DNA from: Octopus vulgaris
Taxonomy: Eukaryota
Length of the DNA stretch: 64,000 bases
Direction of reading: 5' to 3'
Assembly: GCA_951406725.2 (NCBI GenBank)
Contig: OX597814.1
Location: 117,552,001 to 117,616,000 of the forward strand
Shown: positions 2,581 through 56,688 of the stretch, piece after piece
Layout: each line of letters opens with the position of its first letter
Position numbering within the stretch: position 1 is the stretch's first letter
Notes under the pieces: generated by a model
The model's input: only the letters and a program-made list of their open reading frames with translations
What the model was told of the DNA's origin: nothing
The model's database searches: none
Program-made: the position numbers and the translations under genes

Positions 2581-2873
2581 ATCAAAATAAGTAACAGGAT
2601 ATCAAGTAGAAATGCAGTACGACCGTTTCGAGCGACTCCTTTTAATTGAACAAGGCAATCGTTACATTGATTTGAATGTAGTGTTATCTTCACCTGCACA
2701 AATAAATACATAATATATATTAATGTGTCATACTCGTTAAAATTCCATTTATTTGTACAACTTAGGATAACATTACATTTAAATTGATGTAATGATTGCC
2801 TTGTTCAATTAAATGGAGCCACTTGAAATGGTTGTTCTGCTCTACTACTTGATACCCTGTTGCTTATTTTGAT
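2581..2873. mobile_element. Fold-back element (arms 2581-2707 and 2747-2873) from a PLE pseudo-LTR, carrying a near-intact HHR
   Basis: Arms align as diverged reverse complements. Minus strand 2613-2698 reads tgcag-gTGAAGA...ctc-GAAA-cggtc-GTA-ctgca. Right end abuts (TA)n. Confidence 0.75.
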
Positions 2874-3139
2874 TATATATATATATATATATATATATAT
2901 ATATATATACTCACACACACAATTATACATGTTCATGTTTCCGTACGTCTATCTGCATGTGTGTGTATGTGCAAATATATACCTCTGTATATCTGTTTCA
3001 ATATCTATTCATGTCTCTATTTGTGTGACTACCTACCAACTTCCATCTTTATTCAAATGTTTATATATATATTTATATATTTAAAATTAAATAAGGGTAG
3101 ACATTTATATTTTAAAAAAAACGAAGGTTAAATTTTTTT

Positions 3140-3321
3140 TACAAAATTTAGAGGATTGACTACTAAAAGTGGACAGCCTGTACACTAGAAATAGACGTAA
3201 AAATCGCATTTTCCCCGGAGAATGTATTCTCAAGTAAAAAGTCAGCAAAAATGGCGATTTTGACGTCTATTTCTAGTATACAGGGTGTCCACTTTTTGTG
3301 GTCAATCCTCTAAATTTTGTA
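3140..3321. repeat. Fold-back element with ~70-bp arms abutting (TA)n
   Basis: tacaaaatttagaggattgac...gacgtaaaaatcgc pairs with gcgattttgacgtc...gtcaatcctctaaattttgta. A related single arm lies at ~15040-15105. Confidence 0.8.
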
Positions 3322-4073
3322 TATATATATATATATATATGAGTGCAGAGTTAGGGCCGTGAGACTGACTCAATATGTGTATTTCTATGCTCTTCTATGA
3401 GCTTGTATTTGTCACTAAGTGCGTTGGTGTCTCTGGATTAATATTACTTTGTATGGAAACATATATAAAACTGGAGATATTATGAATCTAAACTCGTTTA
3501 GTTTAATATGACGAAAACGCTCTTGTCTACCAAAACATTGATATATGAGTTATGGAAAATGAAGTTAGGGATTATACCATGCAGATTTAACACCCATAAT
3601 TCCTAAATATTCGTGATATAAATTATGGAATTCTTTTTTTCCAGAAATATGCATTCAATGTGTGTATGGTGTGGAAGATATAACTTTCTGTACCCCAGTA
3701 AAATGTAATAGATTCCAAATTATTAATAAGTTGTAAGGCAAGAGAATGTCTTCGCTATTTTGATAGGTGATGTAAATCTTTTGTATTATCTTTAATTATC
3801 TGAAATGTTGAGAGGAAACCAAGCGTTATTGTAAAGGTAACGAACATTAAATTTGACAAGTTACGAGGGACAATCGTATGCCGTATGACAATATTTCACT
3901 TGAGAGGATTAATATGATAAACCGATTCGTCAGATACAGCTGCACAACATTTGTAATCTCCATAGTGTATGGAAACACATGCATATACACTGAGTGCCTA
4001 TATCTATCTACGCTATCAACTCCCATAAATAAACACACATATATATATGCATAGATATGCATTGAAATAATCA

Positions 4074-4156
4074 TATATATATATATATATATATATATAT
4101 ATATATATATATATATATATATATATATATATATATATATATATATATATATATAT
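4074..4156. repeat. (TA)n microsatellite, representative of dozens of (TA)n, (CA)n, (TACA)n and (GA)n tracts in the window
   Basis: Directly visible. Confidence 0.98.
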
Positions 4157-5399
4157 GCATAAATATATGTATGGGAATATATGCATGTATGTATATACGT
4201 ATGTCTCTCTCTCTCTATATATATATATAAATATGCCTGTTCGTTTGTTCCTCTCTTCCTATCTATTTCAATATATATATATATATATATGTGTGTGTGT
4301 GTGTGTGTGTGTGTGTGTGTGTGTGTGTGTGTGTGTGTGTGTCTGTGTATAAAATTATTTGTATGTATACGTTTGTAAATTCATGTTGCAAGATATCTGA
4401 TGTGCAATCGTGTGTTGAAACATATTATTGTTTTCCGGAATGGTCATGTTTTTTTCCCAAATAAACACACGCAATATATATTTGTTTTTAACGCATTTAT
4501 AACTGTTCATTTTTCCTTGAAATCCCACCTACTGAAGAGTACAAATTCGACCTTTATGACGTTCTCTCCGTGGAAATCTTGGTCCATTTGTCAGAAATAA
4601 TTATCTGGAAATATAAAATCAGGGGATGATCTATTTTAACATGCAATCCGCTTCAATTCATTTATTTCATGAAAATTATTGAACTTTGTTCAATAAATGA
4701 AATTTTATACGAATCATGTCTTTATATATGTATATATATATATATATATAATATACATGTGTGCATATCTGTACATATAATCAGAGACAAAGAGAGAAAT
4801 AGAAAAAGTGTAAATATATTTACGGAGAAAAGTGAGTCTTTGTACCAGCGCATGCATGTGAGAGAGGAGTTTAATTGAAGCCGCCTGTTTGAAGTAATAA
4901 AGTAGTAAATATATTTTGCGTTTGAAATAAAATTTAAAGTGTAAGAGCTGTTCATTTATGCCATGCGGCATTCCCTTGCAATCCAATAAATCGAAATAGA
5001 AGAGATGATCAAGCAGGGCAATGATATTTCCCGCAAAATATATGTATTTATTTACTATCTATGAAGGGATGATAATTAAGCTTATCAATGCCAATGTGCA
5101 TGTAATGTTTATATATGACGCCGAGTTTTATTAGTTTTGAGATAATGAATGCGAAAAAAAGGCAATATTTTTGAAATTAGTTAGGGCGAGTGGAAACTTC
5201 CCAACATTACGCTAAGCGTGAAAATCAAATGGAAAGTATACTTAGAATGAACGTAAAATAAGAATTGTTAACTAGTCAAACGCATATCCGTTGCTTGAAG
5301 AAATAACTTTGAGAAGAGGGATTAATTCTGGTCGGAAGAGATAAATGGAATTTTTTATTGAAATATAAACACAATTAATCAAATATACAATATGAGCAA

Positions 5400-53790: not shown

Positions 53791-54221
53791 GGTGCAGACT
53801 GGCGGGTGGAGATCAGTTGATGCTTCGACTGTTCCCTTGATGATAATATGAAAATTTATTTCTTAAATATTCATTTCAGCAATTACAATCAAAAACACAG
53901 AAGTCTCTCTTTCTCTCCCACTCTCTGTCACTTTCTCTCTCTCTCTCTCTCTCTCTCTCTCTCTCTCTCTCACACACACACACACACACACACACAAAAC
54001 TTGTGTAGATATTTCCCTGAAGGATTCTTGCTCATGAAGGAAATTATAAAATGACAAGACGAAGCAAGTAGAGTAATAAGTGTTTGTACACTAATGTTTC
54101 GTTTATTTTAGGTGGTAGGTTTAGTAATGTTAATGTGCACTTGTATTTATTGAAAGTTCATTTTCAGATACATATCATGGAAATATGGTAATTATTAATA
54201 CATTTCACTACATACACTTTA

Positions 54222-54430
54222 CTGTCTCTTTTACTCTTTTACTTGTTTCAGTCATGTGAATGTGGCCATGCTGGAGCACCGCCTTTAATGGAGCAAATAA
54301 CCTCAGGACTTATTCTTTGTAAGCCTAGTACTTATTCTATCGGTCTCTTTTGCCGAACAGCTAAGTTACGGGGATGCAAACACATGAGCATCGGTTGTCA
54401 AGCGATTTTGGTGGGACAAACTAACACACA
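54222..54430 (-). mobile_element. 3' half of SINE family B
   Basis: ctcttttactcttttacttgtttcagtca... matches the tail of 21697-22083. Confidence 0.85.
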
Positions 54431-56365
54431 AACATACACACACATACCGACACACAGACACAGACACACATACGCACACACACACACACACACACACACA
54501 CACACACACACACACACACACACACACACACATATATATATATATATATATATATATATATATATATATATATATATATATACAGATATATACATCGTTA
54601 ATATCGACATGGAATAACCAATATCAGCGGCGTGAATGAATGCCGGAGGAAAGAAATTTGGTCTTCAGACGATTGGCATGAAGTCCAAAAATTGTGAGTG
54701 TTTTGATAATATTATTGGAGTCCACTTCATGTAAGGCGCAATACTTTAAAAATAGTTTCTCGTTTCATGCAACAAACTGTTTTAAATTGCCTATAAAACA
54801 CAGGCCCTGGAGAGACGTTCTTTTTTAATTCATGTAGACAATGGATATAGTATTCACTCAAAATGATAATTTGAGCTACCCTGCATTATACATATATTGA
54901 TATTAGTATCCTATAATAATCAATAAATAAAACAAACAACTTTTTCAACCTGTTTTATGTAAAATAACCGAGGACGTCGAAAATGAATTTTAACATAAAA
55001 GTCAGATGAGTTATGCAAAAAGAATTTTGAAATTTAACGCTGCATTGTATCTGTTCAGTGCAGACATCCTAAAACGAATATCTGCAGTTCGTAAAATTTA
55101 TTTGCAAACGGAGTTTTTAACGTATGCCAAAAGAATCTATTTTCCAACCAGTCGAAAAAAAAAAGTAGCGTGATATCAAACAATAGAGATATTTCATCAG
55201 TTTTGCGTCTCAACCTCTCTGTTCTACTACTACAAAAATTTAAACAAAATAAAAGTGATATATTTAAAAAAAAAGCAGTTAAGCAGTAAACGTGATTTAA
55301 CTTCCAAAAAAGTTCTGAAATAGGGCAGAATACTCGATTTGCCAGGGGCATACATCTTGTTCTATAGATCACACATTACTTGAGTGTATAAAAACGATTT
55401 AATGGCTGTTTAACATCATTATTTTACTATTATTTTAATTATTGAAGCTCACGAACATCTCCCTTTGTTCAATAAGTGTGGTTACAGAGAAGAAAGAATA
55501 CCAAGTATTACAAAAGTTTTAGTTGATAATCAAAGGATATATTTGAGTTTCCAGAAACTGCGATAGAAAAACACGGATAAAAATAACGTATTCATTTGAA
55601 CAAAGGAATGCAATGCTGCGTACATAGGTAAGTGTGAAATTACATTGGCCATGTTAAAAGAACAAAAACGGTCGATAGGTCGATATCATGTAAGTTAAAG
55701 TAATATTACTTAACTTCTTTATTTCCATAGAAATGATTGAAAACTAACAAAACTCTATTGATCAAAGTCCATTATAGATATCGTTTAGCCGTCGGCTTAG
55801 TGTGCAGAATCTAATCACTTATAGAGAAGGTACGATAAATTCAGTTGACTGAAAATGTGATGGATGTATTCTATGATTGCAACACCCAAAGCATTTTCAA
55901 TCCAGTTAAATCTATCAGGCCCTCTCTCTGTCTAACCAACCACTTCTTACATTTAATACACACACACACAGAGTAAGAGAGACTCTCATGTATGTGTATA
56001 AATATTGTATCTCTACGCATTTGTGCAAATGTGCATGTATATATCCATATATATATATATATATATATATATATATATATATATATATATATATATATAT
56101 GTATATTATATTTATATGTATATATATGTATGTATATATATATATATGTATATGTATGTATATATATAATATTATATGCATACTCACACACACATATATT
56201 ATATATGTATATATATATATACATGCACGCGTCGGTTTATGCGTATATATATACATACATCTCTTTCTGTATATATATATACACACGCATTTGCACACAC
56301 ACAAAAAATTAATATAGATAGCCGTGTGCAATGTGTTACCAAGAAGAAAAACTCTAATTGGCATT

Positions 56366-56518
56366 AACTCTTGCTGCACTTTGTGCTGGCGAAGTGTGTG
56401 CTGCATTCGTTCAGAGGAGTGTTGCATAGTAGTTTGTGTAAATTATAAATAAACCATTTCATCGTAATCATGGTAATCTGTGCAACGTTCAATATGTTTC
56501 AGGAGAGAAATTAAGAGA
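56366..56518 (+). repeat. 153-bp direct repeat, copy 1
   Basis: 3 mismatches to 59173-59325. Confidence 0.9.
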
Positions 56519-56636
56519 ATACCTACCTTGCCAGAAATAAGGGATAAAAAGTTCTAATGCTGTAGGTAAAGCACATAATTGTATACATAAATACTGACAG
56601 GAATTGCCATCGCCTAAAAATACCGGTTGAGAAATT

Positions 56637-56688
56637 CCCTATACCGAAAGGTCAGTTTCGGTCATATTCTGTGGCCTCATCAGTAGAG
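56637..56688 (-). ncRNA. Type I hammerhead ribozyme with a full (non-palindromic) stem III
   Basis: ctcta-CTGATGA-ggccacagaatatgacc-GAAA-ctgacctttcg-GTA-taggg. Stems I and III pair; stem II has one mismatch. Confidence 0.75.

Follow-up and report, generated by a model that had tools for sequence, protein, structure and literature searches.

A stretch of 64,000 nucleotides (nt) of the Octopus vulgaris genome (assembly GCA_951406725.2, contig OX597814.1, positions 117,552,001 to 117,616,000 of the forward strand), referred to here as the window, is animal DNA of 33-34% GC, dense in microsatellites and transposon remnants, in which hammerhead ribozyme motifs lie within inverted repeats. The original prediction had named five such structures, at 2581, 15536, 18351, 22343 and 26639, and had traced them to Penelope-like elements (PLEs). 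Self-comparison of the window, with shuffles as control, yielded six clear local fold-backs, namely the five named structures and a sixth at 3140-3321, so that inverted repeats are found at every named site, the 18351 pair being borderline. The structures are very probably insertion products of endonuclease-bearing PLEs, consisting of two 3' end pieces placed head to head in a TA repeat, and their PLE identity taken by itself can be stated with greater confidence still.

The evidence begins with the 22340 element (22340-26235), which lies between two (TA)n flanks, at 22237-22344 on the left and 26236-26280 on the right. Its main copy (22340-24590, minus strand) is a 5'-truncated PLE that comprises an endonuclease C-terminus, a long 3' untranslated region (UTR) and a pseudo-long terminal repeat (pLTR) end with a hammerhead, and that stops at the short 3' end. 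An inverted second copy (24591-26166, plus strand), more strongly 5'-truncated, is identical to 22340-23952 at 1563 of 1576 positions (99%) and meets the main copy in a blunt head-to-head junction at 24590/24591. It is followed by a one-sided tail of 69 nt (26167-26235, plus strand), which is element sequence borne by the short arm, and each arm holds sequence absent from the other. A 36-nt duplication of nearby element sequence, at 23742-23777, occurs in the left arm only.

The minus strand at 24402-24590 encodes the last 63 codons of a Hydra-type GIY-YIG endonuclease, with CxxC, E, N and Cx(H) motifs. A phmmer search with this 63-residue remnant recovered 28 relatives at E <=0.001 (best 2.2e-9), and a profile built from those relatives, without the window row, scored the remnant at 6e-21; a word-indexed protein search with the remnant gave no match, and Pfam named no family for it or for its relatives of about 700 residues. 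The endonuclease profile retrieved 15 proteins of 474-756 residues among 8000 scored candidates. Five inspected relatives possess reverse transcriptase (RT) motifs, DKT, a CxCX5C linker and a C-terminal endonuclease (EN) without CCHH, with RWK in four of the five and also in the consensus of 12 relatives, and hhalign matched the remnant to the alignment of full-length RT-EN proteins at 95% (E 1.8e-8). RWK, DKT and CxCX5C define the Hydra clade of PLEs (PMC8557442); here they and the RT are seen in the relatives only, those regions having been truncated away from the window copy. The remnant itself has CQLC, E and N, and reads C-I-R where family contigs have His (translated by hand). The hammerhead at 22456 (minus strand) lies on the same strand as this open reading frame (ORF). 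Because the remnant matches Hydra RT-EN proteins, the minus strand from 24590 to 22340 is read as a 5'-truncated PLE, and the 22340 element is, judged by its sequence, a Hydra-clade PLE insertion product. In a test set beforehand, which opposed PLEs to the terminal inverted repeats (TIRs) of DNA transposons, the endonuclease remnant, a fixed 3' end and variable inner junctions speak for PLE origin, as predicted.

Across the structures arm length ranges from 31 to 1576 nt. The old fold-back stub at 2580-2874, a relative of 22340 and of a copy at 7053, has arms (2580-2707 and 2747-2874) identical at 106 of 128 positions, a decayed hammerhead with a long stem II in both, and (TA)18 on its right only. 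An old, near-perfect hairpin stub at 15530-15855 pairs 15530-15695 with 15697-15855 (139 of 156 identical) across a spacer of 1 nt, and carries in each arm a hammerhead whose core is mutated; the right-arm motif has stem III ACAGCTGT, and (TA)n flanks the left side alone. The stub at 26639-26837 is young, with perfect arms (26639-26689 and 26787-26837, 51 of 51 identical), a truncated minus-strand hammerhead in the spacer, a 7-nt junction duplication and (TA)n on the right. At 18351, the arms 18352-18382 and 18625-18656 agree at 28 of 31 positions (31.9 bits), which is borderline against shuffles that yield 0.4 matches at 32 bits or more. In all five structures the 3' ends point outwards and end at the element terminus, and no neighbouring host DNA is duplicated inside the arms. 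The description of the five as largely different in sequence stood only in part, since 2581, 7053 and 22340 align as one group with the common terminus TTATTTTGAT, whose five window matches are all 3' termini of these three, and 15536 is related to the solo motif at 6203. Homology would place 2581 and 7053 in the Hydra clade as well; 15536, 18351 and 26639 are assigned to PLEs by their layout only. The sixth hairpin (3083-3321, folding back at 3140-3321) has TA at both ends and a one-sided extension of about 57 nt, lacks a hammerhead, and may have arisen by fold-back from a PLE without hammerheads, for example a Naiad. Its extension recurs in a solo relative at 14999-15170, which makes it doubtful as a hammerhead-free control for miniature inverted-repeat transposable elements (MITEs).

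The hammerheads differ in integrity. A strict type I descriptor, with background from 30 shuffles, matched the window four times (22456 minus, 26050 plus, 7172 minus and 56683 minus) against 0.03 matches per shuffle, and a looser scored descriptor (cut-off score >=6.5, background from 12 shuffles) added 2693 minus, 18424 minus, 3933 minus, 4532 plus and 42699 plus, eight motifs scoring >=6.5 against 0.25 in shuffles. Only 22340, among the five structures, holds intact hammerheads, and does so on both arms: a type I hammerhead at 22383-22460 (minus) with a 51-nt stem II, stem III ACATATGT and its cut after 22387, and the mirror copy at 26046-26123 (plus), cut after 26119. The 18351 hammerhead is borderline, with an intact core and weak stems; 2581 and 15536 have the motif on both arms, each with a core mutation, and that of 26639 is cut off at the core, without C3 or the 5' strand of stem I. 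The claim that all five are hammerhead-bearing thus stands for 22340, marginally for 18351, and for the other three only as motifs with broken cores. Five further motifs had been listed, of which those at 7090 (7172 minus) and 56637 (56683 minus) are intact and those at 6203, 6423 and 26349 decayed, the last with no recognisable CUGANGA. The palindromic stems III were found as listed; the 56637 hammerhead has an ordinary stem-loop instead. Rfam returned no hammerhead family among the best 150 of 195 matches listed, only microsatellite and miRNA noise, and for the 56637 hammerhead gave only E=0.92. Hammerhead-like motifs at 3880-3940 (minus) and 42699-42755 (plus) are additional to the earlier list.

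Co-occurrence of hammerheads and inverted repeats, the subject of another test set beforehand, is above chance. Motifs found by descriptor lie in three of the six local inverted repeats (p=0.003; 539 of 200000 random placements), and when five hand-picked decayed motifs are added, five of the six hold a motif (p ~5e-6; 1 of 200000). The outer ends are likewise associated with TA repeats, (TA)5 or longer lying within 10 nt of five of the ten ends, against 4.2% for random positions. The expectation of (TA)n at one or both ends is borne out at both ends of 22340 and at one end of three structures, and fails at 18351, which has it at neither; the one-sided tail, said to occur often, is present in 22340 and only guessed for the other four.

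Contigs from four public runs (X1, X2, X3 and X8) place the 22340 element within a family, part of the 22340-26235 stretch being present in 20 of 24 listed runs, from five organisms. Contigs exit the stretch at 26151 into TA repeats at least 14 times in X1, at least 28 times in X2 and at least three times in X8 (24 of 422 loose ends listed), so the short 3' end is common to the family; the region of the 69-nt tail is covered by family contigs in all four runs. An X8 contig continues past 24590, and the 30 bases beyond that point (read by hand) form an in-frame continuation fitting the endonuclease profile. Loose ends at 24590 and 24591 carry natural upstream sequence on each side, and the junction in the window is therefore private and blunt. 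Two more head-to-head joints, at 24432/26016 in X2 and 24430/25744 in X3, each contain two extra bases and show no sequence in common at the join. The two arms are alike against the variant at 18 of the 20 family-variable positions checked (20 of 40 listed, with 43 further), which indicates that both derive from one donor type. The X2 and X3 joints interrupt the main copy within a few nucleotides of each other (24432 and 24430), possibly because a hairpin was amplified or because stops are preferred there.

Hairpins of this shape might also be MITEs, or DNA transposons of fold-back type, bounded by TIRs and TA duplications and containing a hammerhead-like sequence by chance, or PLE hairpins that were amplified whole. 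The TA flanks and hairpin shape would suit such an origin, as would the hammerhead-less 3140-3321, and the contig with the X3 junction is 293 deep, compared with 28-44 for three further X3 contigs listed, which hints weakly at multiple copies of one junction. The spacer, however, holds a PLE endonuclease, the ends are asymmetric through the tail, and the arms span the whole range of lengths given above. Solo, one-armed relatives (7053, 6203 and 14999) and variable inner junctions also tell against such an origin, as does, weakly, the summed contig depth (not a copy number), which rises towards the 3' end. We consider this origin very unlikely.

For the PLE insertions themselves, two-strand priming on one donor RNA is the mechanism we favour, with moderate confidence. 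The GIY-YIG endonuclease would nick both strands of the self-complementary (TA)n target, and each 3'-OH would serve as a primer for copying the same donor RNA, one start falling at a short site about 40 nt past the hammerhead cut and the other at a long site, which would add the tail. Both cDNAs would stop early, at random, and because two cDNAs of equal polarity cannot anneal, the truncated products would be end-joined, either in a blunt joint or with a little filler sequence. The 26639 junction, with its 7-nt duplication, fits such end-joining repair. Very early stops would yield MITE-looking hairpins. The hammerhead would be carried along by virtue of its position near the 3' end, and would afterwards decay and be masked by the antisense arm. 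A PLE protein in vitro cleaves and extends both strands, with two start sites that bound the tail, and needs no hammerhead cleavage (PMC11167929).

The second arm could instead be made by self-priming, with PLE origin unchanged, the growing strand looping back on itself at a short palindrome to serve as its own template. Self-priming has been proposed for rotifer Penelope, on an antisense template (PMC3846280); the 15536 structure, a near-perfect palindrome with its 1-nt spacer, is of the kind it should produce, and variants common to both 22340 arms are expected from it. Against this, the short arm of 22340 has a 69-nt tail that is absent from the long arm, its junction shows no microhomology, and the two other junctions contain filler bases without overlapping sequence. 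Together, the short-arm tail and the blunt junction favour two-strand priming over simple fold-back, which could not easily add extra 3' sequence to the short arm. Loss of the tail from the long arm during resolution would rescue self-priming, which is a possible, though rather unlikely, route.

A third route would separate insertion from inversion, a single PLE end being inserted and later duplicated in inverted orientation by replication template switching or by repair at fragile TA repeats. TA repeats extrude and break, and the arms share variants, both of which would suit this route. In all five structures, nevertheless, the outward 3' ends coincide with the element terminus, one arm lacks the tail, which is itself element sequence, and no neighbouring host DNA is duplicated in the arms. 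We consider this route very unlikely as well. A breakpoint set by the ribozyme was likewise considered. The short-arm starts are scattered, at 89, 81, 1528, 375 and 103 nt upstream of the hammerhead cut, or about 7 and 19 nt downstream, and inversion at the cleavage site is rejected as a rule; the ribozyme does not set the breakpoint, 18351, which alone starts near the cut, being a possible exception.

Two-strand priming can also be set against 78 Hydra-like loci from metagenome contigs, a set biased to full-length ORFs and short-read contigs, in which a sense-strand hammerhead is present at 50. One locus (L019, by eye) shows (TA)7 followed by a short inverted 3' end, a pLTR with a hammerhead and the full ORF, the 26639 layout joined to a whole element. 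Neither kind of upstream repeat, inverted or direct, is present at 15 of the 78, and the flank is shorter than 300 nt at 26. Among 51 loci, 14 have a TA run after the hammerhead, lying 30-54 nt past the cut in 11, 103-110 nt in two and 6 nt in one, and the window distances from cut site to TA, 42 and 116 nt, fit the first two classes. The motif AGCACT lies 53-76 nt past the cut in 36 of the 51 (shuffles, 2). It sits in GCTC...GAGCACT, often twice about 60 nt apart (loci L002-L076), a candidate RT/EN recognition signal that may bound the tail.

Several observations weigh against the interpretation as a whole. An upstream inverted copy is present in only four of the 78 loci of this biased set, against a direct repeat in 33, although 25 of those 33 touch the contig start and may reflect assembly collapse. 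The window tail matches AGCACT with one mismatch and further out, and its 69 nt exceed the published 30-40 nt. The 1-nt spacer of 15536 fits self-priming equally well, and no ORF is attached to 15536, 18351 or 26639. The junctions number three and come from one family only, the two contig joints have 27-28 nt on the short side, and no strand-changing joint was listed among the family contigs of the four runs.

The prediction that inversion is the usual outcome of insertion was not upheld. The census of hammerhead-like insertions in the window (n=12), from which 4532 was excluded as ambiguous and a motif at 14856 as below the score threshold, contains five that are inverted, two with short direct repeats and five that are solo (3933, 6203, 6423, 7053 and 26349). 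Inversion is common in the window, and its share at the time of insertion may have exceeded five in 12 if old palindromes have lost an arm. The solo copies include a pLTR end at 7055-7180 (minus) with an intact hammerhead (ACAATTGT) and no inverted arm, and a hammerhead with a 7-bp stem I at 3880-3940 (minus), absent from the earlier list. Decayed hammerheads lie at 6203-6255 (plus), related to 15536, and at 6423-6455 (plus), with G5 changed, and a stub between two (TA)n runs at 26281-26465 (plus) has kept its GAAACGT half, the first core half being unrecognisable. The direct arrangements are at 42369-42895 (plus), where a hammerhead-like motif (42699) stands between short direct repeats and the whole ends in (TA)27, and at 56301-56799 (minus), where an intact monomer-type hammerhead (C3 at 56683) lies between 60-nt direct repeats with a period of about 440 nt. 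The latter is retrozyme-like, and 153 nt within it are 98% identical to 59173-59325.

Neither do the stubs appear to act as working ribozyme cassettes, as had been suggested. Cores are broken in 2581, 15536 and 26639, and since the 3' ends are directed outwards, transcription entering from either flank would produce the antisense arm before the sense ribozyme. The 15536 structure is predicted to fold as a single duplex (-177 kcal/mol, z -24.5); with the antisense arm made first and pairing with the ribozyme, active cassettes are unlikely, and the stubs are probably inert in this respect. The predicted fold of 26639 leaves the truncated motif in the loop. Monomer folds of the window hammerheads were no better than those of shuffles, except for 56637 and 42699 (z about -2), and the fold predicted for the 26050 monomer is not a hammerhead. 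If the stubs are transcribed, the resulting long duplexes could serve as substrates for ADAR or RNA interference.

The 18351 structure has a further feature. Its long arm (18351-18585, minus) runs from a tRNA-like head (18585-18513) through (TAA)10 and the hammerhead (C3 at 18424) to the 3' end, with no (TA)5+ flank; the short inverted arm (18600-18685, plus) is without a hammerhead, is firm for 18625-18656, and may include a tail. The head is 73 nt long, has A and B boxes and five of seven acceptor pairs, and is one of two A/B-box pattern matches in the window; ARAGORN called no tRNA gene there. The start of the long arm lies no more than about 20 nt from the 5' end of the tRNA-like unit, no target-site duplication (TSD) brackets the head (by eye), and the composite is presumably a common octopus repeat. 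A tentative reading that these features would favour, and that we put forward as conjecture, is that 18351-18685 is a short interspersed element (SINE) driven by RNA polymerase III (Pol III), with a tRNA head and a PLE pLTR and hammerhead as its 3' end, that was mobilised by PLE protein, which would account for its inverted arm and tail, and that the stubs as a class record two-strand priming, with PLE machinery rather than DNA transposases as the source of many MITE-like repeats in this genome that form double-stranded RNA. Against it, 18351 is a single copy, and a SINE nested in a PLE 3' UTR would look alike. The window has no other copy, and viral and prokaryote collections, in which none would be expected, gave no match. 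A 27-nt match of its tail at 31896 is isolated and was not used. The literature searched held no PLE-partnered SINE, the nearest case being the Schistosoma Pol III hammerhead repeat. If the reading is true, 18351 would add a SINE partner class that was not found described.

The layout is already published (PMC8557442, PMC3846280, PMC4209133), and the stubs are a known insertion form and common genomic scars, not a new system; the comparisons made here extend to the available portions of the papers cited. An inverted, 5'-truncated copy, a one-sided tail of 30-40 bp and (TA)n targets have been described for PLEs (PMC8557442), the supplement of the same paper recording for Penelope-13_HM an inverted copy truncated at its 5' end together with hammerheads on the two strands, and also listing an octopus Hydra family. 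Hydra-clade PLEs (Craig et al. 2021, PMC8557442; Penelope-13_HM, Hydra-1_Obim) resemble 22340 in the C-terminal EN, with CxxC and CxH around E and N, in (TA)n targets and in a canonical type I hammerhead near the 3' end. They differ in stem II, 51-59 nt here and short in the Hydra motifs listed there, and the window is further set apart by a stem III that is an even 8-nt palindrome, a 3' UTR of about 2 kb and the 69-nt tail. By eye, Hydra-1_Obim is of a different family from 22340, and six short window motifs are absent from the portion of the supplement available (PMC8557442); a family consensus for the stubs may nonetheless exist in published supplements or Repbase. Penelope/Poseidon elements (Adineta vaga, PMC3846280; Anolis PAc, PMC11167929) have the same head-to-head inverted ends, one-end tail and two RT start sites, whereas most window cases have lost the whole ORF and any TSD is unreadable within the TA runs.

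Minimal PLE hammerheads (Cervera and de la Pena 2014, PMC4209133) are, as here, of type I with a palindromic stem III. In Schistosoma, opposite-strand pairs 100-700 bp apart were reported, most motifs being single and from truncated PLEs; the available text of that paper does not tie the pairs to hairpin stubs. Non-LTR retrozymes (PMC7229834; bioRxiv 10.64898/2026.07.22.740005) are non-coding, PLE-related and furnished with a type I hammerhead, as are the structures here, but are head-to-tail tandem units, whereas the five window structures are head-to-head; the window contains no head-to-tail array of hammerhead units, and 56301-56799 may be closer. The Schistosoma SINE-like hammerhead elements (PMC6765202) combine a Pol III promoter and a hammerhead, as 18351 does, but they are tandem repeats whose promoter sits at the 3' terminus of the cleaved unit, whereas the 18351 head lies on the 5' side of its hammerhead and the inverted arm is of PLE type. 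Recently active Penelope families have been counted in Octopus vulgaris, in an account whose accessible sections do not discuss such hairpins (PMC13282606). How PLE inverted ends form has been named as an open question (PMC8557442), for which dense stubs of several families are a natural dataset, the tail-bearing arm and junction microhomology separating two-strand priming from fold-back. Repeat pipelines would be likely to label such stubs as MITE or unknown.

Other retroelement and transposon remnants lie elsewhere in the window. Further PLE endonuclease remnants of Hydra-like type occur at 6718-6882, 10329-10600 and 16088-16210 (all plus), and an RT-EN remnant at about 62500-63700 (minus) combines, by motif, an RT with a GIY-YIG of another type. 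A non-LTR retrotransposon C-terminal ORF with zf-RVT is found at 1006-2559 (minus), with a similar, decayed piece at 57500-58400 (plus), recognised by eye, as was a mariner-like transposase remnant at 35883-36906 (minus).

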